Origin: Dehalococcoidia bacterium
Lineage (GTDB): Bacteria; Chloroflexota; Dehalococcoidia; Lucifugimonadales; SAR202-VII-2
Direction: 5' to 3'
DNA: 64,000 bases
NCBI GenBank assembly: GCA_965263165.1
Contig: OZ253584.1
Span: 1,138,401-1,202,400, forward strand
The translations under genes and the position numbers were made by a program. Positions 54,352 through 64,000 of the stretch are shown piece by piece; within the stretch, counting starts at the first letter, position 1; every line of letters begins with the position of its first letter. The notes beneath the pieces are model-generated. The model did no database searches. It was given only the letters and a program-made list of their open reading frames with translations, and had not been told where the DNA came from.

Positions 54352-55093
54352 TAGGGGGTGGCGCTTCCTGGACGGAGGGGCTTGTTGCGGCCAGCGCCCT
54401 GGTTCAACGGAGGGTCTGGCTTGGCCTGCGCCGCTATCCCGCCCGCTCCGCCCTCCGGCGTTTTTAGAAACAGGGGAACTCCCCCTGTACCCCCAGCGGG
54501 GGCTGCGCCCCCTGCACCCCGCTTGGGGAACGGAGGTGAGGCGTAGCCAGGGGAAGAGGGATAGGGACCGTTGCGAAGCGCGATCTAGCGCGGTCACAGC
54601 GCGGTGATAGCCCAGTCAAGCGCGGTCATAGCCCCGACAGAACGGAGGTGAGGCGTTACCGTTGCGAAGCCGAGGTGTGATGCGGTGATAGCCCAGTCAA
54701 GCGCGGTCATAGCCCCGACAGCCGTTAGGCCGAGGTGTGATGGATTGTTCCCCGCCCGCGCCGCCCTCCGACGTTTCTCAGAACAGGGGCAGCCCCTGTA
54801 ACCGGCCGCCAAACGCCCACGGTAAGTGTAGTACACTCAGGGGGCTGGTCAATCTGGCAACAGGGACAACCTGCAACGCTGACCTCGTGTTCAATGAAGC
54901 GCGTTCGGCTGACCCCGTGCACATCGAGCTGGCCGGACGAATCATGCAAGACCTGCTCGGCCTTCGTGAAGATGCCGTGTCCGCCGTGGGCAGGCTACGG
55001 ATACTGTGCTGGCCAGCGACCCGCCTGTTCATGGGTCCAAAGAGTCAGCGTAAGTGGCTTAAGATGCCAAGCAGATAGTTGAGGCGTGAGTGA

Positions 55094-55858
55094 ATGGCTG
55101 TGGGTAACACGCTTGCAGGAGGCATTGGAAGAACCCCCAGTACTGAGTACGCTCTGATGGAGAGCTTCGAGCTGACTCTTCATAGCAATATACGCTCCCG
55201 TCGGTCACCTAGCCAGATACGCCTGCACGAACTTGACGGTCTCCAAGGGCGGGCTGATTTGGTGGACGCTCACATCCATGCGTTGCCCAGTGCCGTGAGC
55301 CTTGACGTGCTGGCAGCTTCTCTGATGTCACCTGCGAAAGCTCGGTTACTCGCTCTTCTAAGGTACGGCGCCCCTCGGAGCAGGGGCTACCTTGCGAGAG
55401 GTACGGGCTTCTCGAGTCGTTCTCTGGGAGACCACATCCGACACCTGGAGAGAGTAGGGCTTGCCAATGTTCACAAGAGTACGGCCGTTTCGCTGGGTTG
55501 CCCGTTGCCATGGTCGATGGTTGATATCACAGCTTACGAGGGCAAGCTTTCAAATTGGCGCCGGGCGTTGCACCAGGCAGTAGGCTACCGCTCTTTCTCC
55601 CGGTCCGTGTGGGTAGTCATGCCAGCGTCTGGAGCCCAGCATGCCAAGAAGCTCGCAACGGTCTTCCACATCAATGGAATCGGATTAATAGCAATTGCCG
55701 GCGACGGCAGCGCGCACGTTGAAATCAGAAGTAGGAAACGCCGTCCAGCAAGCCGCAGGCTTTACTTGATGGCAGTTGGGGTTATCCTAACCAAATTTAT
55801 AGAGGAAAGGAGGCGTTTACACCGCCGCATTAGACCTGAAACGATTCAGCGCATCTAG
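55094..55858 (+). CDS. PD-(D/E)XK nuclease-fold protein with inserted winged helix
   Basis: HE...GRADLV...[HTH: RGYLARGTGFSSRSLGDHIRHLERVG]...EGK...QAVGY (QxxxY)...GIGLI. Confidence 0.7.
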   Translation: MAVGNTLAGGIGRTPSTEYALMESFELTLHSNIRSRRSPSQIRLHELDGLQGRADLVDAHIHALPSAVSLDVLAASLMSPAKARLLALLRYGAPRSRGYLARGTGFSSRSLGDHIRHLERVGLANVHKSTAVSLGCPLPWSMVDITAYEGKLSNWRRALHQAVGYRSFSRSVWVVMPASGAQHAKKLATVFHINGIGLIAIAGDGSAHVEIRSRKRRPASRRLYLMAVGVILTKFIEERRRLHRRIRPETIQRI

Positions 55859-56992
55859 CCATTGATCTAAGTGAGTTGGGCCTGTGTCAGTCGTGAACGG
55901 CACCAGGGTTCCCGCTTGTGCGTAGACCGCGAGTGCTTGGGCAATCAAGTTGTGGGCCGAATCTAAACGATGGCTAACCGTGCCACCTGAGAGCGACCGC
56001 AATATATCAGCCAGCACAAGCCAGTGTTGGAGCGCGGCATCCTCGGCTGGCCATAAGACGTTCTCTGGGTTGGTATTCCCATTGAATCGGGCGTCGAACG
56101 GCGTAGCAGAGAGCACATCGGCCACGCGACCCCCATTGTAAATTCCATCGAGCTCGGTCATGTAGATGCTGTTTAGCAGCGGCGAGGACGAATAGCGAGG
56201 TCGTGGCTGCCTACCCCCAGGCACTGGTTGGAATCGGCGCCAGTTGAACTGGCGCAAGCTGGCAAACCAACCGGCTCCAGTCGCAGTGACACCTACGGCA
56301 TGCAATAACAGCGTGACCACATCGGTGTATCCAACCAAGAGGCGGTATTGGTTCAACTCCGCAAGCGAATAGCAGACGCGTAGCAGCGAGGCAAGCACCT
56401 CCGGTTCGTAGTGCTGGCGGTAAGTTTCTGACGTGCGCCGGACAATCAAATAGAAGCCGGCGACATCCAACTGAGTGAGGCTATCTAACCAGTCGTCCAC
56501 TGGTACCCGCTGCAGTAGCGCATCCTCCCCGACCGCAAGGCTTATCAACAATGGCTTATTACCATTGTGCTGAGCAACGGTCTCCTGTGCGAGCATCATG
56601 GCGATCTGAGCCCACTGGCTACTGAGGTCATCAACCATCACAGTGGGGGACACGACTGCTGAAACGTCCAGTCCATTCTGCCAATTCAGAGCAGCACTCA
56701 CGAAAGTTCGTATTTCTGCCGGACTAAAGGTGCTCGGCGTTAAGTGCTGCCTGTAGTGATCGTAGTACAGAAGCTTGCCGTCGCGGACTGGCCAAATGGT
56801 TCCGGCGTAGAGTTGGGGGTCTACTAGCCGTTCAGAGTGTGGGAAGTTAGCTTGAGTCGCCGACAGGAATGAAGCAAGGTTATCTGGCAACTCGTCTCGA
56901 GGGCTCATGATTACGCCTTGAATGGAGTGGTTCGCAATTCCTTGCTCGATCTTATTCGTCTTACCCCAACCATGCTGTGCTAGAATCGTCAT
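55817..56992 (-). CDS. Uncharacterised protein, probable TIM barrel (beta-protein/TGT-like)
   Basis: Alternating beta/alpha pattern with QHG, SP, DPQLY, GFY, VGY, GAGWF..LRQF and GGRQPRPRY motifs; 4 bp overlap with the kinase. Confidence 0.55.
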   Translation of the reverse strand: MTILAQHGWGKTNKIEQGIANHSIQGVIMSPRDELPDNLASFLSATQANFPHSERLVDPQLYAGTIWPVRDGKLLYYDHYRQHLTPSTFSPAEIRTFVSAALNWQNGLDVSAVVSPTVMVDDLSSQWAQIAMMLAQETVAQHNGNKPLLISLAVGEDALLQRVPVDDWLDSLTQLDVAGFYLIVRRTSETYRQHYEPEVLASLLRVCYSLAELNQYRLLVGYTDVVTLLLHAVGVTATGAGWFASLRQFNWRRFQPVPGGRQPRPRYSSSPLLNSIYMTELDGIYNGGRVADVLSATPFDARFNGNTNPENVLWPAEDAALQHWLVLADILRSLSGGTVSHRLDSAHNLIAQALAVYAQAGTLVPFTTDTGPTHLDQWLDALNRFRSNAAV

Positions 56993-57897
56993 ATCTTGAC
57001 TCCTAACCTGACTGCCACTTCCTCAATAGCTGCCTTCGCATGGTCACACCTTCGATACCTGAGGTGCGGCGCCTTGCCGAGCAACCTTGCAATAAAGGCG
57101 CTCAGGTCGAGTGGGAAACCTTCGATCCTTTCGGCTACCGGCGGAGGCGTTATCGTGAGGATTCCGGCCAGTGTCTGAGATAGACTTGTGCCATCTGCCT
57201 TGAATGGGTGTTCAGATACAGCAGCTTCGTACAGCACAACCCCTATTGCGAATAGGTCAGACCTGAAATCTAAGGCTCGTTTTCGAGAGGGGTCCATCTG
57301 CTCTGGGGAAAGATAGGCCATGGTCCCAACCGGAACTGGCACCATGGTCAGCGAAGGTCCGTGCAAGTCAAATGCGACTCCAGTATCAAGTAGCACAAAC
57401 CTTGAACTATCAACGGCCCACATCACATTAGCGGGTTTTATATCGCGATGAACCAGCCCCCGACCAGACAGCCAACATGTAGCCTGTACAAGGTCAATAC
57501 CCAATTGAGCGACTTGGACTGGCGAAAGCCTAGCCTCGCGAATCATCTCTTGTAGGTTTTTGCCTTCGACCCATTCTTCAGTAAAACAAAGCCAACGCGC
57601 GGCGGCCACCTCGACCATGAAAAGGCCCAATGGACCACGCCTCGCGAGAACTGGCACATCAACCTGGTCCAAGATGGCTACCTCGCGCTGAGCCCTCCCG
57701 ACCACCGCACGTATATCGAGGTCATCTTCCTCCGAAGTTACTTTCTCAGGAGCTACGGCAATCAGCTTCAGTGCGATGGTTTGTCCTTTAAGCAAGGCCT
57801 TATAGACCGCCTTCTGCCCGCCTTTCTGGACAAGTTCAGCGGCATCAATATCAGCAATGCAGGCCGCAAGCATTTCTCCTGTCGGGTAATCCACCAT
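56989..57897 (-). CDS. Hanks-type Ser/Thr protein kinase (no TM or sensor domain)
   Basis: KGGQKAVY loop, IALK, HRDIKPAN, DTG (DFG variant), GTMAYLSPE and DLFAIG; ATG 57897 preferred over GTG 58014. Confidence 0.93.
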   Translation of the reverse strand: MVDYPTGEMLAACIADIDAAELVQKGGQKAVYKALLKGQTIALKLIAVAPEKVTSEEDDLDIRAVVGRAQREVAILDQVDVPVLARRGPLGLFMVEVAAARWLCFTEEWVEGKNLQEMIREARLSPVQVAQLGIDLVQATCWLSGRGLVHRDIKPANVMWAVDSSRFVLLDTGVAFDLHGPSLTMVPVPVGTMAYLSPEQMDPSRKRALDFRSDLFAIGVVLYEAAVSEHPFKADGTSLSQTLAGILTITPPPVAERIEGFPLDLSAFIARLLGKAPHLRYRRCDHAKAAIEEVAVRLGVKI

Positions 57898-58231
57898 TTC
57901 TGCCCTTTTATGAAGATTCCACGCCTTGTCTTTGAAGAACCACTTGCCCCAACCACCAATGGAAGCCGAAGCTCGGCTGCGGTTTAATGAGACATCGCGC
58001 ACCGTAACACTCACTAGTGTACATCAACCGCGGACGACTCTGCTGTCAGGCTGTTTACTATTGGCCGATGTGCGAATGCCCGCACCTGATATTATCGATC
58101 TGTCATTTCTGCGAAAACAAGTCCCGCCCCCATACCCTCGGTTGCCCTGGAGGTTGCGTGAGCAGCATTCGCAACGCCGTCGCCACGATCGACGGGCCAG
58201 CCCCCGCCCCCGGCGACGCCCAGCAGGGAAA

Positions 58232-58270
58232 CCCTCTACCCCAGCCTTCCCCAGGTACGGGGCAGGGACT
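58232..58270 (-). repeat. REP-like hairpin
   Basis: Minus strand GTCCCTGCCCC-GTACCT-GGGGAAGG-CTGGGG. Confidence 0.65.
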
Positions 58271-58336
58271 AGAGGAGTGCTTGCGCTTGCGCGCCGGGGG
58301 CGGGGGGGGTGACAATGGTTGCAGCCAAGTTGAGGA

Positions 58337-59545
58337 GTGGTTATGGCAACCTCCCACGGGACCCATTGGACCGAACCCACCGGCGACGCCAAGGCCGGGT
58401 TCGGCAGGTGGCAGCGGCCGGCAAGCCCCTACGACCGCTTCATGGAGGAAGAGGGGATACCCGTACACCGGGCCATCGGCGTGCACCGGGTGCAGGACCT
58501 TCCCCTGAAGCCCTGGAAGCGGACGGGAGGCAACGGGACCTACATCCAACTCTACGGAACGGAAGGCCTTTGGGGCATGTACGTCGTGGAGGTACCCGCC
58601 GCCGGCGCGCTGAACGTCGAGCGCCATCTCTACGAAGAGACCTTCCTCGTCGTCGAGGGACGCGGCTCCACCGAGGTGTGGCAGGACAAAGACCCATCCA
58701 AGAAGAGCGCCTTCGAGTGGAGCGCGGGGTCGTTGTTCTCGGTTCCCCTCAATTCATGGCATCGCATCATCAACGCGACGTCCAGCCCGGCCCTGCTGCT
58801 GGCGGGCACGACGGCCCCCAACGCCATGAACCTGTACATGAACAGGGACTTCGTCTTCAACACGCCCTACGACTTCACCGACCGCTACGACGCGGCGGCC
58901 GACTTCTACCGCCCCGCTGAGGACCTGGCGCCCGATCCGGTCCGCGGCCTCGCCATGCTTCGAACGAACATCATGCCGGACATCATCAACTGCGAGCTTC
59001 CGCTGGACAACCGCCGCTCCCCCGGGTATCGCCGGGTGGAGCCGCACATGGCGTCCAACAAGTTCTACCTGTGGATAGGCCAGCACGAAACGGGGCGCTA
59101 CTCGAAGGCCCACGCGCACGGCTCGGCGGCGGTGCTGATTTGCCTCAAGGGGAAGGGGTACACCTATACCTGGCCCGCGGAGTTGGGGACGCATCCGTGG
59201 GAGACAGGGAAGGCGGAAAGGGTGATGTGGCAGGACTACGAGCCGGTGGGCATGGTGAGCGCCGCGCCCATGAGCGGCGACTGGTTCCACCAGCACTTCG
59301 GCGTCAGCTCCCAACCCCTGCGGTTGACGGCCTGGTTCGGCCCGCACGCGCCCGGCCGCGAGGCCGGCCGTCCCGGAGAGGAAGCCATCGACAAGGGCGC
59401 CATTGACCTGCATGAAGGCGGGACCGCGATCCCCTACTGGGAAGAGGACCCCTATATCCGCACGGAGTTCGACGCCAAGCTGCAACAGGAGGGCGTCGGC
59501 TCTCGCATGGACGAATCGTTCTATCGCAGGCCGTCCGGAGCGTGA
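58337..59545 (+). CDS. Bicupin of unknown function paired with an EutA-like gene
   Basis: RHLYEETFLVVEGRG...NSWH and SKAHAHGSAAV...WFHQHF His motifs in both cupins. Confidence 0.8.
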   Translation: MVMATSHGTHWTEPTGDAKAGFGRWQRPASPYDRFMEEEGIPVHRAIGVHRVQDLPLKPWKRTGGNGTYIQLYGTEGLWGMYVVEVPAAGALNVERHLYEETFLVVEGRGSTEVWQDKDPSKKSAFEWSAGSLFSVPLNSWHRIINATSSPALLLAGTTAPNAMNLYMNRDFVFNTPYDFTDRYDAAADFYRPAEDLAPDPVRGLAMLRTNIMPDIINCELPLDNRRSPGYRRVEPHMASNKFYLWIGQHETGRYSKAHAHGSAAVLICLKGKGYTYTWPAELGTHPWETGKAERVMWQDYEPVGMVSAAPMSGDWFHQHFGVSSQPLRLTAWFGPHAPGREAGRPGEEAIDKGAIDLHEGGTAIPYWEEDPYIRTEFDAKLQQEGVGSRMDESFYRRPSGA

Positions 59546-59635
59546 GCGGGGCGGCGGACAACGGTTGTCCCTCCCGCGCCCATCCCAGCGTCTCTTCCCA
59601 TTAGTCTTTCCCAATTGGTCACCCCGGCCCGGCCC

Positions 59636-61102
59636 ATGATTTCCTCAGGCTTCTCCGGTTCCCAACGCCACCTGGTTGAAGAGGACAGCATTGTCCTGAC
59701 CAGCGTTGGCGTGGACATCGGCTCGTCCACGTCCCACCTAGCGTTCTCGCGCCTGGAACTGGAGCGCGCCGACGCCCGCTATGTTGTGGTGCGCCGCGAG
59801 ATTCTCCGGGAGTCGGAGATACTGCTGACGCCTTACGCGGCGGACTCCTCCATCGATGCCGAAGTGCTGGGACGTTTCGTTGATGCCCAATACGAGGCCG
59901 CCGGGCTGAGGCGGGAGGACATTGACACGGGCGCTCTGATCCTCACAGGCGTGGCGCTCGAAAGGCGCAACGCCAGGGCCATAGGGGATGTCTTCGCCCA
60001 GGAGGCGGGGCGGTTCGTGGCTGTAAGCGCCGGCGACGGGCTCGAGGCGACCCTGGCCGCATACGGTTCCGGAGCGGCGGCGGAGTCCCTGAAAGGCGGC
60101 GTGGGCCTCAACGTCGACATCGGCGGGGGGACGACCAAGGTGGCCGTCTGCATCGATGGACGGGTCGTGGAGGTGACCGCCCTTGACATCGGAGCGCGTC
60201 TCGTGGCGCTCGACGGCGAGGGCGTGGTTAAGAGGGTTGAGGATGCGGGGCGCCGTCTGGCGGAGGCCGCGGGCGTCATATTCGATGCCGGAGGTCGCCC
60301 TTCGGAGTCCGAGTTGCGAACAGTGACGTCGGTCATGGCGGACTGCGTGGCGGAGGTCGTCGCAGGGGGGGCGCTTTCGGAGAAGACGCTGGGGTGGCAC
60401 CGGCTGCCGCCCTTGACGCAGCAAGCGGCGCCGGACTGGGTGGTGTTCTCCGGGGGGGCGTCGGAGTACATCTACGGCCGGGAGCCGCGCGCTTTTGGGG
60501 ACCTTGGGCCAATGCTCGCCGAAGCGGTGTCACAACGAGTGAGGGCCTTGAATATCCCGGTGAAGACGCCGACGGCGGGCATCCGCGCCACGGTGATCGG
60601 AGCGTCTCAATACACAGTCCAAGTCAGCGGCAGCACCATTTTCGCGTCGCCGGAGGATGCGCTGCCGCTGCACAATATCCCGGTGGTCCGGCCTGAATTC
60701 GAGTGGGGCGACGACATCGGTCCGCACGGGGTGGCGCAGGCGGTGCGCAGAGCGCTGGCGGGGCTCGGCGGGGCGGGCGAGGCCGCGGCGGTGGCCGTTG
60801 GCGTTCGTTGGGAGGGTTCCGCAACCTACGCCAGATTGCAGGCGTTCTGCGCCGGCATCCTCGATGGGTTGGAACCGAGCTTGGCCGCCGGGAACCCCCT
60901 TATCCTCGTCGCCGTTGGCGACGTGGGTGGGCTGCTGGGCCTGCACCTGCGGGAGGAGATGGGGCTGACCAGCGCCGTCGTCTCCATTGACGGGGTGGAG
61001 CTGCGCGAGTTCGACTATATCGACATTGGGGAACTGATCCCGACTTCAGGCGCGGCGCCGGTGGTTATCAAGTCGCTGGTGTTCCCCACGCGCCAAGAAT
61101 AG
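59636..61102 (+). CDS. eutA: EutA-like reactivating factor (actin-like ATPase fold)
   Basis: SVGVDIGSSTSH, GALILTG, FVAVSAG, NVDIGGGTT, FSGGASEY, IRATVIGASQYTVQVSGSTI and PVVIKSLVF; ATG 59636 (ORF track 59615). Confidence 0.88.
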   Translation: MISSGFSGSQRHLVEEDSIVLTSVGVDIGSSTSHLAFSRLELERADARYVVVRREILRESEILLTPYAADSSIDAEVLGRFVDAQYEAAGLRREDIDTGALILTGVALERRNARAIGDVFAQEAGRFVAVSAGDGLEATLAAYGSGAAAESLKGGVGLNVDIGGGTTKVAVCIDGRVVEVTALDIGARLVALDGEGVVKRVEDAGRRLAEAAGVIFDAGGRPSESELRTVTSVMADCVAEVVAGGALSEKTLGWHRLPPLTQQAAPDWVVFSGGASEYIYGREPRAFGDLGPMLAEAVSQRVRALNIPVKTPTAGIRATVIGASQYTVQVSGSTIFASPEDALPLHNIPVVRPEFEWGDDIGPHGVAQAVRRALAGLGGAGEAAAVAVGVRWEGSATYARLQAFCAGILDGLEPSLAAGNPLILVAVGDVGGLLGLHLREEMGLTSAVVSIDGVELREFDYIDIGELIPTSGAAPVVIKSLVFPTRQE

Positions 61103-61141
61103 TGCCACCAGGGGTTGCTGGGCGGCCGCTATCGTAGGCTG

Positions 61142-61190
61142 GGGGAACCCCCTTCCTAACCTGCCCCCGACTACGGGGGGCAGGGACAAA
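61142..61190 (-). repeat. REP-like hairpin with tail
   Basis: CCTGCCCCC-GACTAC-GGGGGGCAGG at 61160-61184 with minus-strand tail TTAGGAAGGGGGTTCCCC. Confidence 0.8.
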
Positions 61191-61211
61191 GAGAGGGACG
61201 GTGGCGCCGGG

Positions 61212-63260
61212 CTACGCCTTGGCCGCCTCCCGTTCCTTCTTGGCTTCCTCCACGATGCGTTGCTGGGCCTGGGCGGGCACCGGCTCGTAGCTGCTGAACG
61301 CGACGGTGAAGTAGCCGCGTCCCTGGGTTAGGGCCCGGAGCTCTGCGGCGTAGCGTCGCATCTCCGATTGGGGCACGGTGGCCTCCACCTCAGTGAAGCC
61401 GTCGCTGGGAGTCATGCCGGCAATGTGGGCCCGCTTCGAGTTGAGGTCGCCCACGACTTCGCCGGTGAAGGCGTCCGGAACGGTGATGGTGGCCATGAGG
61501 ACAGGCTCGAGGAGGGTGGGTTGGGCCTTGGCCATTCCCTGCTTCAGAGCCATGCCGCCGGCGATCTCGAAGGACATGCCCGATGAGTCCACGGAGTGGT
61601 AGGAGCCGTCGTAGAGAGTGACCTTGAGGTCAACGATGGGGAAACCGGCTAGGACTCCTTCGTGAAGGGACTTGGAGACGCCCTTCTCCACGGCGGGGAT
61701 GTACTCCTTGGGGACGGTCCCGCCGGTGACCTTGTTGCTGAATTCGAACCCGGATCCGCTGGGCAGGGGCTCGAGGGTGATCATGACGTGGCCGTACTGG
61801 CCGTGGCCACCGCTTTGCTTCTTGTGCTTGTACTCGGTGTTCGTCTTGGCGGCGATGGTCTCCTTGTACGGCACCTTGGGCAGAGCGATTTCGGGGTCGA
61901 TGCCGAACTTGCGCTTCATCTTTTCCGTGGTTACGTCGATGTGGACATCGCCCATCCCCTCCAGGACGGTTTCGGCAGTGTCGGGGTCGCGATGGACCCG
62001 GAGGCTGGGGTCCTCTTCCACCAACCTGGCCAGCGACGATGACATCTTGTCGAGGTCGCCCTTTGACTTGGGATGCACGGCGACGGAGTGCGTGGGGCTG
62101 GGGAAAAGGATAGGGGCCATGGTGTAGGGCTTGTCCCTGTGCCCCAACGTGTCTCCCGTGGTTGTGGCTGTGAGCTTGGGGACGGCGCCAAGGTCGCCGG
62201 CGCCGATGGCGTCGACGGTTTCCTGGGTCTTGCCGCGGGGAACGAACACCTGGCCGATACGCTCGGACTGTTCCTTGTCTGCGTTCCAGACCTCGCCGTT
62301 GCTCTTGAACACGCCGCTGAAGACCTTGAAGTAGGACAGCTTACCCACGAAGGGGTCGGCGGTGGTTTTGAAGATCTGGGCCACCAATGGGCCGTCCTCA
62401 GAGACCTGAAGAGATTCGGCGCTGCCGTTTGTTTGGACGTCGCTGGGAGGCATGTCCGCAGGGGAGGGGAGGAGGTCGACGATGGCGTCCAGCAGTTCAT
62501 TGATGCCGATGTCCAAGGTGGCCGCTCCGGCAAGGACGGGAACAACGCTCCCGGAGAGGACCGCTTGCTTGAGGCCGCGCGTCAGGTCTTCCTGGCTGAG
62601 GACGCCCTCTTCGAGGTATTTGTCGGCGAGCTCATCGTCGGCCTCGGCGACGGCCTCCATCAGCTTGTCCAGGAGATCGCCGGCCTGGTCCTCCAGGCCG
62701 GCGGGGAAGCCGGCGGGGTCAAGCAGGCTGACGACGCCCTCGAAGCTGGTGTGGGCGCCGATGGGGAGCTGGATGGCGACGCATTGCCTGCCCAAACGCT
62801 CTTGGACCGACGCCAGGCATTGGTGGAAGTCGGCGTTTTCCCTGTCCATGCGGTTGATGTAGACGATGCGGGGCAGGTTGCGCTCGTTGATCAATTTCCA
62901 GATGAGTTCCGTTCCAACCTCGACGCCCACCGGAGCGGAGATTGGCAGGACGGCGGCGTCGGCGGCTCTGAGGGCTGAGTACACCTCGCCGATGAACTCG
63001 ATGTAGCCGGGGGTGTCGAAGATGTTGATCTTGTGCCCGCGGTGCTCGCAGGGCACGAGGACCGCCTGGGTGGAGCTCTGGCGCTTGACCTCTTCGGGTT
63101 CGAAGTCGGAGGCGGTGTTGCCTTCTTCGACCTTGCCGAGCCGGGTGGTGGCGCCGGTGTTGAACAGCATAGCCTCGGCCAGCGAGGTCTTGCCGGTCCC
63201 GCCATGAGAGACCAGGGCCACGTTCCTGAGCTTATCCACGGCAACCTTCTGCATGAGCAT
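61212..63260 (-). CDS. Elongation factor G paralogue (EF-G2 type)
   Basis: GGTGKT, DTPG, NRMD, KKQSGGHGQYG and DGSYHSVDSS motifs; divergent switch I RQSST in place of RGITI. Confidence 0.92.
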   Translation of the reverse strand: MLMQKVAVDKLRNVALVSHGGTGKTSLAEAMLFNTGATTRLGKVEEGNTASDFEPEEVKRQSSTQAVLVPCEHRGHKINIFDTPGYIEFIGEVYSALRAADAAVLPISAPVGVEVGTELIWKLINERNLPRIVYINRMDRENADFHQCLASVQERLGRQCVAIQLPIGAHTSFEGVVSLLDPAGFPAGLEDQAGDLLDKLMEAVAEADDELADKYLEEGVLSQEDLTRGLKQAVLSGSVVPVLAGAATLDIGINELLDAIVDLLPSPADMPPSDVQTNGSAESLQVSEDGPLVAQIFKTTADPFVGKLSYFKVFSGVFKSNGEVWNADKEQSERIGQVFVPRGKTQETVDAIGAGDLGAVPKLTATTTGDTLGHRDKPYTMAPILFPSPTHSVAVHPKSKGDLDKMSSSLARLVEEDPSLRVHRDPDTAETVLEGMGDVHIDVTTEKMKRKFGIDPEIALPKVPYKETIAAKTNTEYKHKKQSGGHGQYGHVMITLEPLPSGSGFEFSNKVTGGTVPKEYIPAVEKGVSKSLHEGVLAGFPIVDLKVTLYDGSYHSVDSSGMSFEIAGGMALKQGMAKAQPTLLEPVLMATITVPDAFTGEVVGDLNSKRAHIAGMTPSDGFTEVEATVPQSEMRRYAAELRALTQGRGYFTVAFSSYEPVPAQAQQRIVEEAKKEREAAKA

Positions 63261-63379
63261 CCCCCTAGAAGCCGGTGATCTGGACGGCGGGGCGCTGCTA
63301 TGGCGCCAGGAGCGCCCCTTTTCGGCGGACTGTGGGCGCGCCGCGGCCAGGATAAGCCATTCTACGCATGGGTTTCAGC

Positions 63380-64000
63380 CTATGCAAACGGGGCATTGGG
63401 GAGACGGTGACTGATATCCACCACCTGCGCCCCGGCGGCCTCTTGGAACAGATCGGCCGTGGCCGGGTGGCACGTGAACACCAGTACCTGGTTGGTCTCC
63501 GCAAGTTCTGCGAAGGACTCGGCCGCAAGCCGGGCCCGCTCCTGGTCGAAGTTGACCAGCGCCTCGTCGACGACGACCGGCAACCGCTCGGCGTGTTCGC
63601 CGAAATCCCGGATGAGGCCGAACCGCAGCGCCAGGTAGAGCTGCTCGCGGGCGCCCCGGCTGAGCTCGGAGGGTTGCTTTGTGCGGCCGGTAGTGTCTGT
63701 CACGGTTATCGTTTGCTCATCGATGGGCGCATAGAGCCGGTTGTACCGATGGCCGGTGACATTGGCAAAGAAGTCCTGGGCGTGCCGGATGACACCGGGC
63801 TGGCGTTCCAACTCGAATTTCTGCTGCGTCTTTTTCAGCAGCGACTCCGCGATAGTCAGCCGCGACCACTCGTGGGCCTGTTCCTGCAGCTGTTCTAGGA
63901 GGGTAGTCTGGCGGACTCGCAAGGCCGACGAATCCTCTTCGCTGGTCAGGCGCGCCAGATCAGTGTCTATGCCGCCCCGCTCCTCTCGCAGCGCGTTGCA
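63380..64000 (-). CDS. YhaN/Rad50-like AAA ATPase, C-terminal part (runs off window)
   Basis: LSRGAREQLYLALR signature and VVVDEALVNFD (Walker B/D-loop). Confidence 0.88.
   Translation of the reverse strand, partial: CNALREERGGIDTDLARLTSEEDSSALRVRQTTLLEQLQEQAHEWSRLTIAESLLKKTQQKFELERQPGVIRHAQDFFANVTGHRYNRLYAPIDEQTITVTDTTGRTKQPSELSRGAREQLYLALRFGLIRDFGEHAERLPVVVDEALVNFDQERARLAAESFAELAETNQVLVFTCHPATADLFQEAAGAQVVDISHRLPNAPFA

Follow-up and report, generated by a model that had tools for sequence, protein, structure and literature searches.

Two open reading frames (ORFs) on the plus strand occupy positions 58337–61102 of the stretch analyzed here, a window of 64,000 nucleotides (nt) from a Dehalococcoidia bacterium whose genome is a single 3.09 Mb contig, 94.85% complete. 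The first encodes a cupin protein with two barrels (a bicupin) and the second, directly after it, a full-length ATPase of the EutA family. EutA is known as a helper of ethanolamine ammonia-lyase, which it opens with the aid of ATP so that damaged cobalamin (vitamin B12) is released. An original prediction, made from the letters of the window, had described just such a EutA-like ATPase behind a cupin with motifs in both barrels, and both ORFs are confirmed here.

The two genes and their products

The longest ORF of the bicupin runs from GTG 58337 to 59545 (P0001, 402 amino acids (aa)) and that of the ATPase from TTG 59615 to 61102 (P0002, 495 aa); residues are numbered from these codons throughout. 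The bicupin gene itself likely begins at ATG 58343 (58343..59545, plus strand, 400 aa), because a GAGGAG ribosome-binding site (Shine-Dalgarno) lies 6 nt 5' of that codon and a database homologue with 99% identity is 400 aa long. For the ATPase the likely start is ATG 59636 (59636..61102, plus strand, 488 aa), since homologues that are 97% identical begin there (MISSGFSG). The spacer between the genes (59546..59635, plus strand) is 90 nt long and contains no terminator-like site, and the pair is probably transcribed as one unit.

A single Pfam Cupin_2 domain matches the N-terminal half of the bicupin, covering its N barrel (36.5 bits). An AlphaFold2 (AF2) model built on an alignment of 62 family members (predicted local distance difference test score (pLDDT) 94.6, predicted template-modeling score (pTM) 0.92) consists of two beta-barrels and resembles over 100 chains of bicupins and cupins at Z >= 8, which places the protein in the cupin superfamily. 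The motifs of the N-terminal barrel (58601..58774, plus strand) read [E/Q]95-x-H97-x3-E101-x6-G108 and G131-x5-P137-x-N-x2-H142-x3-N146, and those of the C-terminal barrel (59090..59302, plus strand) read H259-x-H261 followed by W-F-H318-Q-H320-F. Among the 62 aligned sequences the N-barrel ligands are kept in 54 (H97), 51 (E101) and 47 (H142), and the C-barrel ligands in 54 (H259), 55 (H261), 60 (H318) and 58 (H320). All four C-barrel histidines are invariant in a 10-sequence alignment that includes paralogs only 31% identical to the bicupin, while in those paralogs, as in the two paralogs at locus L006, the N-barrel ligands are gone. The alignments thus indicate that the His site of the C barrel is constant across the whole bicupin family and that the N-barrel site is not; for the orthologous group of the window protein, with ligand motifs in both barrels, the earlier description as a two-site bicupin is right.

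Judged by sequence, the family is large and unnamed, and the bicupin fits no named one. A word-indexed search returned 2,834 matches, all with the generic name "cupin", the family comprises 1,705 representative clusters (50% identity) at E<=0.001, and an Atlas search with the bicupin gave generic cupin clusters only. Searches of the PDB by sequence found nothing useful for the bicupin (only auxin-binding protein, E 0.07) and no useful match for the ATPase, and Foldseek against the PDB returned just generic bicupins (MncA, oxalate decarboxylase, quercetinase) at TM scores of about 0.45. Structural neighbors were separated better by VIA-align, which ranked nearest to the bicupin model gentisate 1,2-dioxygenase (3bu7, Z 20.0, root-mean-square deviation 4.6, 282 residues), salicylate 1,2-dioxygenase (2phd, Z 19.9, 283 residues aligned) and the gentisate dioxygenase of E. 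coli O157 (2d40, Z 19.2, 246 residues aligned). The family also has double-length members (P0393, P0394 and P0395, 784–830 aa); a domain scan found cupin matches in both halves of P0393 and in one region only of P0395, and P0393 thus looks like a fusion of two bicupin units into a single chain.

The ATPase matches the Pfam EutA family (PF06277) over its full length and far above the gathering score (368.4 bits against a cut-off of 27; residues 28–490 on profile positions 3–474 of 475), and it is collinear with, and 34% identical to, E. coli EutA (b2451). The three nucleotide-binding motifs of the ASKHA superfamily are all in place: phosphate-1 (D34-I-G-S-S-T39; 59714..59731, plus strand), phosphate-2 (D168-I-G-G-G-T173; 60116..60133, plus strand) and adenosine (S279-G-G281; 60449..60457, plus strand). 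Across 43 EutA-family sequences, those linked to EutB included, D34 and G36, D168, G170, G171 and G172, and the adenosine motif are invariant, and T39 is conserved in at least 90%. With these motifs and an AF2 model of two lobes and actin-like fold (pLDDT 89.5), the protein belongs to the ASKHA ATPases; its model is closest to Ppx/GppA (Z 16.6), and PilM, FtsA and pantothenate kinase III also match. All four EutA equivalog models of NCBIfam are missed by a wide margin (288.3 bits against 598, 250 against 769, 194 against 952 and 193 against 799). Functional membership in the EutA equivalogs fails on score and, as described below, on client and phylogeny; "EutA" is here the name of a family and not of a function.

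The genes on either side of the pair look unrelated to it. Upstream, an intergenic region (58015..58342, plus strand), which carries the GAGGAG site, separates the bicupin gene from a divergent Ser/Thr kinase gene, and downstream lies a convergent gene for an EF-G-like protein. A segment at 55817-58014 (minus strand), running divergent from the bicupin operon, has a lower G+C fraction (0.54 compared with about 0.63–0.66), contains an ORF of 391 aa that matches nothing in Pfam besides the gene for the Ser/Thr protein kinase, and may be a foreign insert. A riboswitch or other RNA upstream of the operon was ruled out, as Rfam gave no match at E<=1 in 55000-64000, and none reached the gathering score in the whole window. 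A consensus scan of 57800-61400 detected neither a sigma-70-like promoter nor a terminator.

Conservation of the pair and the search for a B12-dependent client

A scan of one genome per species found 589 relatives of the bicupin, and the best 80 of these, with 62–74% identity and drawn from Dehalococcoidia, Binatia, Alpha- and Betaproteobacteria, were examined for their neighbors. The bicupin gene is followed in the same orientation by a gene for a full-length EutA-like protein in 50 of the 80 loci, after a gap of 37–590 nt (median 109), and several further loci are cut by contig ends. Five genomes have room at the locus and no EutA-like gene there; four of these hold 3–5 full-length EutA-like genes elsewhere, some of them adjoining another copy of the same type of bicupin. 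A conserved third partner was looked for and not found, the immediate neighbors of the 50 pairs being heterogeneous, with the commonest family seen 5 times among 96.

The same association is seen from the side of the ATPase. In a reverse survey of 30 EutA-family loci from 301 Chloroflexota genomes, taken with 1.5 kb of flank each, a bicupin gene adjoins the EutA-family gene in 19, in varied orientations. EutB adjoins it in two, and these two EutAs are the most distant from P0002 (30–32% identity), one of them being 38% identical to E. coli EutA. The EutA family occurs in 16 of the 301 genomes, the bicupin family in 15 and EutB in 10. All 14 genomes that have EutA and lack EutB carry bicupins, and they come from at least seven taxonomic families; the only two EutA-positive genomes without a bicupin are those in which EutB lies directly beside EutA. 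A bicupin without a EutA-like protein was found in one genome only, which is 88% complete and has the weakest bicupin match. Co-occurrence statistics had been suggested as a check in the original prediction, and presence and absence of the two families indeed match almost perfectly in these genomes; no p-value is attached to this agreement, since related genomes are not independent.

A quick maximum likelihood tree (IQ-TREE) of 57 EutA-family proteins, with a 400-aa filter on tblastn segments, gives a consistent picture. The two EutB-adjacent Chloroflexota EutAs split from the other 55 rows on a long branch (Shimodaira-Hasegawa-like approximate likelihood ratio test (SH-aLRT) 100), and the window ATPase does not group with them; E. 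coli EutA, whose segment fell below 400 aa, was left out of the tree and compared pairwise instead. The partners of this type of bicupin fall in one clade of 29 cupin-adjacent rows and one other (support 100), and the ATPase therefore diversified together with its bicupin type. The pairing is not due to chance, and what it represents is a genuine unit of two genes, both ancient and mobile. We propose that the bicupin and the ATPase form one unit in function as well. A single metagenomic protein (P0397, 735 aa) joins the C-terminal half of a bicupin to a EutA-like domain through an HHHHHH linker, but we did not count it as evidence; it starts in the middle of the cupin, its cupin end looks garbled, and it may be an artefact of assembly or gene calling. 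The remaining long proteins are either bicupins fused in tandem or extended forms that lack EutA.

The known client of EutA is missing from this genome. The earlier statement that the window holds no eutB or eutC is borne out and can be widened to the whole 3.09 Mb contig, where nothing matches PF06751 or PF05985, although an E. coli control gave matches for both families. The case that would have spoken for an ordinary EutA, eutBC encoded elsewhere in the genome, was checked and is not found. Profile searches of the genome also found no lysine 5,6-aminomutase, no glutamate mutase E and no large subunit of a PduC-type dehydratase, with the dehydratase and aminomutase negatives being the weaker ones because the control genomes were silent for those models too. 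The organism does use B12, since its only cobalamin riboswitch (C1:1236205-1236387, L132:4206-4388, 128.5 bits, about 34 kb beyond the window end) precedes an operon for a btuFCD-like importer (Peripla_BP_2, FecCD, ABC_tran), and the genome has two small ORFs with a B12-binding domain. These facts speak for a true reactivase of a cobalamin enzyme whose client lies elsewhere, such as a mutase with one of the two B12-binding domains; the cupin would then be a neighbor without functional meaning. Neither the riboswitch and importer nor the B12-domain ORFs are near any of the three EutA-like genes of the genome, however, and the searches turned up neither eutBC nor a diol dehydratase, a lysine aminomutase or a glutamate mutase. 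Moreover, synteny and co-occurrence with bicupins hold across phyla, and the ATPase, at 288 bits compared with an equivalog cut-off of 598, falls in a clade apart from the EutB-linked EutAs. We consider a cobalamin reactivase very improbable. The riboswitch does lie 177 nt 3' of one of the bicupin paralogs, and a link to B12 through this neighbor was considered and rejected, since the riboswitch heads the importer operon and the adjacency looks incidental.

These comparative tests support the proposal of the original prediction that the EutA-like protein serves the neighboring non-B12 cupin and not ethanolamine ammonia-lyase. No function had been known to its author for such a pairing, and our literature searches agree, having found no paper that describes it: neither a publication on EutA-like or PF06277 proteins paired with cupins nor one on a bicupin with a metallochaperone in this sense.

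The genome as a whole holds three EutA-like genes and 15 bicupin paralogs. The second EutA-like gene (L006:6875-8419, plus strand) comes after a gene for a Rieske oxygenase and two bicupin genes. The third (L005:7476-9080, minus strand; C1:1835514-1836926, minus strand) has no bicupin neighbor; it follows gltX (glutamyl-tRNA synthetase) at a distance of about 80 nt and lies beside a shikimate dehydrogenase gene; this stand-alone paralog might serve non-adjacent bicupins in trans. Six of the bicupin paralogs form a tandem array outside the window (C1:2110393-2117715, L118:6394-13716), flanked by two genes for LigXa-like Rieske oxygenases, a gene for an MFS transporter and one for a zinc alcohol dehydrogenase.

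The strict one-to-one pairing in operons and the matching phyletic pattern could also mean that both proteins belong, as subunits, to a single enzyme that consumes ATP, in which the ASKHA protein would phosphorylate or activate the substrate, or drive a difficult step, and the bicupin would do the chemistry. The activators of 2-hydroxyacyl-CoA dehydratases and benzoyl-CoA reductases drive a difficult step in this manner, and the ATPase model matches dehydratase/reductase activators at Z 13.6; the ASKHA superfamily includes kinases as well, and the bicupin is unusually conserved, at 62–74% identity across phyla. Several observations make such an enzyme rather unlikely in our judgment. The ATPase is collinear with EutA over the full length, including the C-terminal part specific to the family, and no member of the EutA family is known to be a kinase. 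Furthermore, most bicupin paralogs of this genome have no adjacent ATPase gene, and the ATPase has no Cys cluster, and indeed no invariant Cys, with which to act as an electron-transferring activator.

A proposed chaperone for a metal center

We return to the proposal that the ATPase serves the bicupin as a helper and consider what enzyme its client would be. Gentisate and salicylate 1,2-dioxygenases (3bu7, 2phd, 2d40), the class III ring-cleaving bicupins, share with the window protein the bicupin architecture, a similar length and the best structural matches. They also share its setting in the catabolism of aromatic acids, with Rieske oxygenases, LigW-like amidohydrolases and TctC transporters encoded near bicupins. 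TctC-like binding proteins are found near the bicupin in 24 of the 80 loci, TctA recurs also, and other recurrent neighbors are LigXa-like Rieske oxygenases, Amidohydro_2 proteins, molybdenum hydroxylases with their 2Fe-2S subunit, alpha/beta hydrolases and thiamine pyrophosphate (TPP) enzymes; such genes are the typical company of ring-cleaving dioxygenases in aromatic-acid pathways. The likeness in fold does not extend to sequence, in which the bicupin is only 12–14% identical to these dioxygenases and matches no profile of gentisate dioxygenase, its sole NCBIfam match being the model for 5-aminosalicylate 1,2-dioxygenase at 18.3 bits against a cut-off of 650. The metal site is placed differently as well. 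The dioxygenases carry a three-His Fe(II) site in the N-terminal barrel, where the window protein has E/Q95-x-H97...E101...H142, with Glu or Gln in place of the first His, and its His-only, family-wide site is in the C barrel. Neither the gentisate nor the salicylate 1,2-dioxygenases are known to have a helper ATPase.

The reading that we favor, and to which we assign about equal chances of being right and wrong, is that of a metallo-bicupin of the oxygenase type with a dedicated ATP-driven chaperone for the maturation or reactivation of its metal center, the chaperone role being suggested by analogy with EutA acting on a different client. The bicupin would be a cytoplasmic metalloenzyme, most likely an O2-dependent dioxygenase of the ring-cleaving type that acts on a carboxylated aromatic or heteroaromatic compound, with a predicted family-wide metal site of three or four His in the C-terminal barrel and a putative second site of Glu/Gln-His-Glu-His in the N-terminal barrel. 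The ATPase, whose task here would be unrelated to vitamin B12, would most likely attach to its bicupin partner, and binding and hydrolysis of ATP would open the barrel, so that a wrong or oxidized metal ion could leave and the correct one enter. That the two proteins bind each other, and that opening serves exchange, is inferred, as are the kind of metal and the substrate; the ATPase may load metal, exchange it or reactivate its client otherwise.

Three known systems help to place this proposal. EutA of E. coli belongs to the same Pfam family, is collinear with the window ATPase, has identical ASKHA nucleotide-binding motifs and likewise adjoins the gene of its presumed client. It differs in that the window ATPase scores below all four equivalog cut-offs, falls in a separate clade in a genome where no EutB or EutC was found, and has a cupin metalloenzyme for a neighbor in place of the B12-dependent TIM-barrel lyase of EutA. 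The diol and glycerol dehydratase reactivases DdrAB and GdrAB (2d0o) have a large subunit with an ASKHA-type ATPase core and offer the concept of an ATP-driven opening of the client to swap a damaged cofactor, but they match the ATPase model weakly (Z 10.4, below generic ASKHA proteins), no gene for a small-subunit partner is seen in the window, and the client here is not a B12 enzyme. The NTP-dependent metallochaperones of the G3E type (HypB, UreG, CooC, MeaB) resemble the ATPase as proposed here in being nucleotide-driven maturation factors, specific for a client and encoded beside it. They often have His-rich tracts, to which tails in sister clades of the window ATPase are comparable, but they have the fold of P-loop GTPases and not that of ASKHA proteins, and the window ATPase has no such tail.

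An N-terminal tail rich in His and Asp, with runs of H-x-H, is present in 13 of 29 EutA-like proteins of other cupin-linked clades, a count of motif hits in which the stand-alone paralog of this genome was hit in two overlapping loci; both other EutA-like paralogs of the genome carry such tails. They were seen at L005, L006, L096, L099, L100, L104, L106, L107, L109, L111, L113 and L115, and the richest has 17 His within 70 residues. Chaperones for Ni, Co and Zn typically have His-rich tails, and by this analogy the tails argue that the wider cupin-linked branch of EutA may handle metal, which would bear on the window protein indirectly. The partners of this bicupin type share instead an N-terminal F-S/T-x-x-x-R...EED motif; a conserved His within it was considered and rejected, since the His is not kept. 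A gene for a nickel/cobalt transporter of the NicO family lies about 50 nt beyond the EutA-like gene, in convergent orientation, in two Phyllobacterium genomes (L073:10751-11875 and L074:10751-11848, both minus strand). We rejected a link to nickel as too narrow, since the transporter was not seen in the other 78 loci or in this genome.

A number of results weigh against the reading of the ATPase as a metal-center chaperone for a dioxygenase. No His-rich tail is present in the window ATPase or in any of 58 checked partners of this bicupin type, and among the 43 aligned EutA-family sequences no His or Cys of the ATPase core is invariant, so that for this clade a direct role in carrying metal is unsupported. 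The ATPase model lies nearer to generic ASKHA proteins such as Ppx/GppA (Z 16.6) than to the diol dehydratase reactivase DdrA (Z 10.4). On the side of the client, the bicupin matches no dioxygenase hidden Markov model of NCBIfam above its cut-off, and other bicupins score Z 16–18 against its model, leaving gentisate dioxygenase a margin of only about 2 Z units. Finally, a EutA-like gene is missing next to 12 of this genome's 15 bicupin paralogs; the bicupin fold does not generally need a helper encoded beside it.

The clade of the window ATPase itself carries no metal-binding residues, as would be expected of a general chaperone for the folding or assembly of an oligomeric bicupin, one that leaves the metal center untouched; the ASKHA fold is shared with chaperones of the Hsp70 type, and the genomic evidence is the same as for a metal-center chaperone. 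The His-rich tails of the sister clades point rather to metal handling, and the established mechanism of EutA is the release of a cofactor from a client that is already folded. A general folding chaperone therefore seems to us distinctly unlikely, and we retain the metal-center chaperone as the preferred reading. A bolder form of it, to which we lend somewhat less than an even chance, is that the cupin-linked branch of EutA is the first ATP-driven maturase or reactivase of ASKHA fold for a mononuclear non-heme metal center, prying a bicupin oxygenase open so that a wrong or oxidized metal ion is expelled and correct metallation becomes possible, and that the B12 reactivase EutA is one specialized offshoot of a broader family of enzyme-opening chaperones.

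Annotation and the biology of the family

Thousands of proteins are automatically annotated as "ethanolamine ammonia-lyase reactivating factor EutA", and among the best 120 of 7,915 homologues of the window ATPase every source name is EutA. For genomes like this one such a functional name is almost certainly mistaken, and ethanolamine and B12 metabolism are falsely predicted as a result. Should the ATPase indeed act as a helper, reactivase-type chaperones would have metal-cupin oxygenases among their clients in addition to B12 enzymes, and the pair would offer a handle on how the cell controls the metallation or repair of cupin enzymes; if the branch is indeed the first ASKHA maturase for such centers, it would represent an undescribed solution to the problem of cupin mis-metallation. 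The bicupin family, with 15 copies in a small genome, located next to Rieske oxygenases of the lignin type, is probably an overlooked class of enzymes in the breakdown of aromatic matter.

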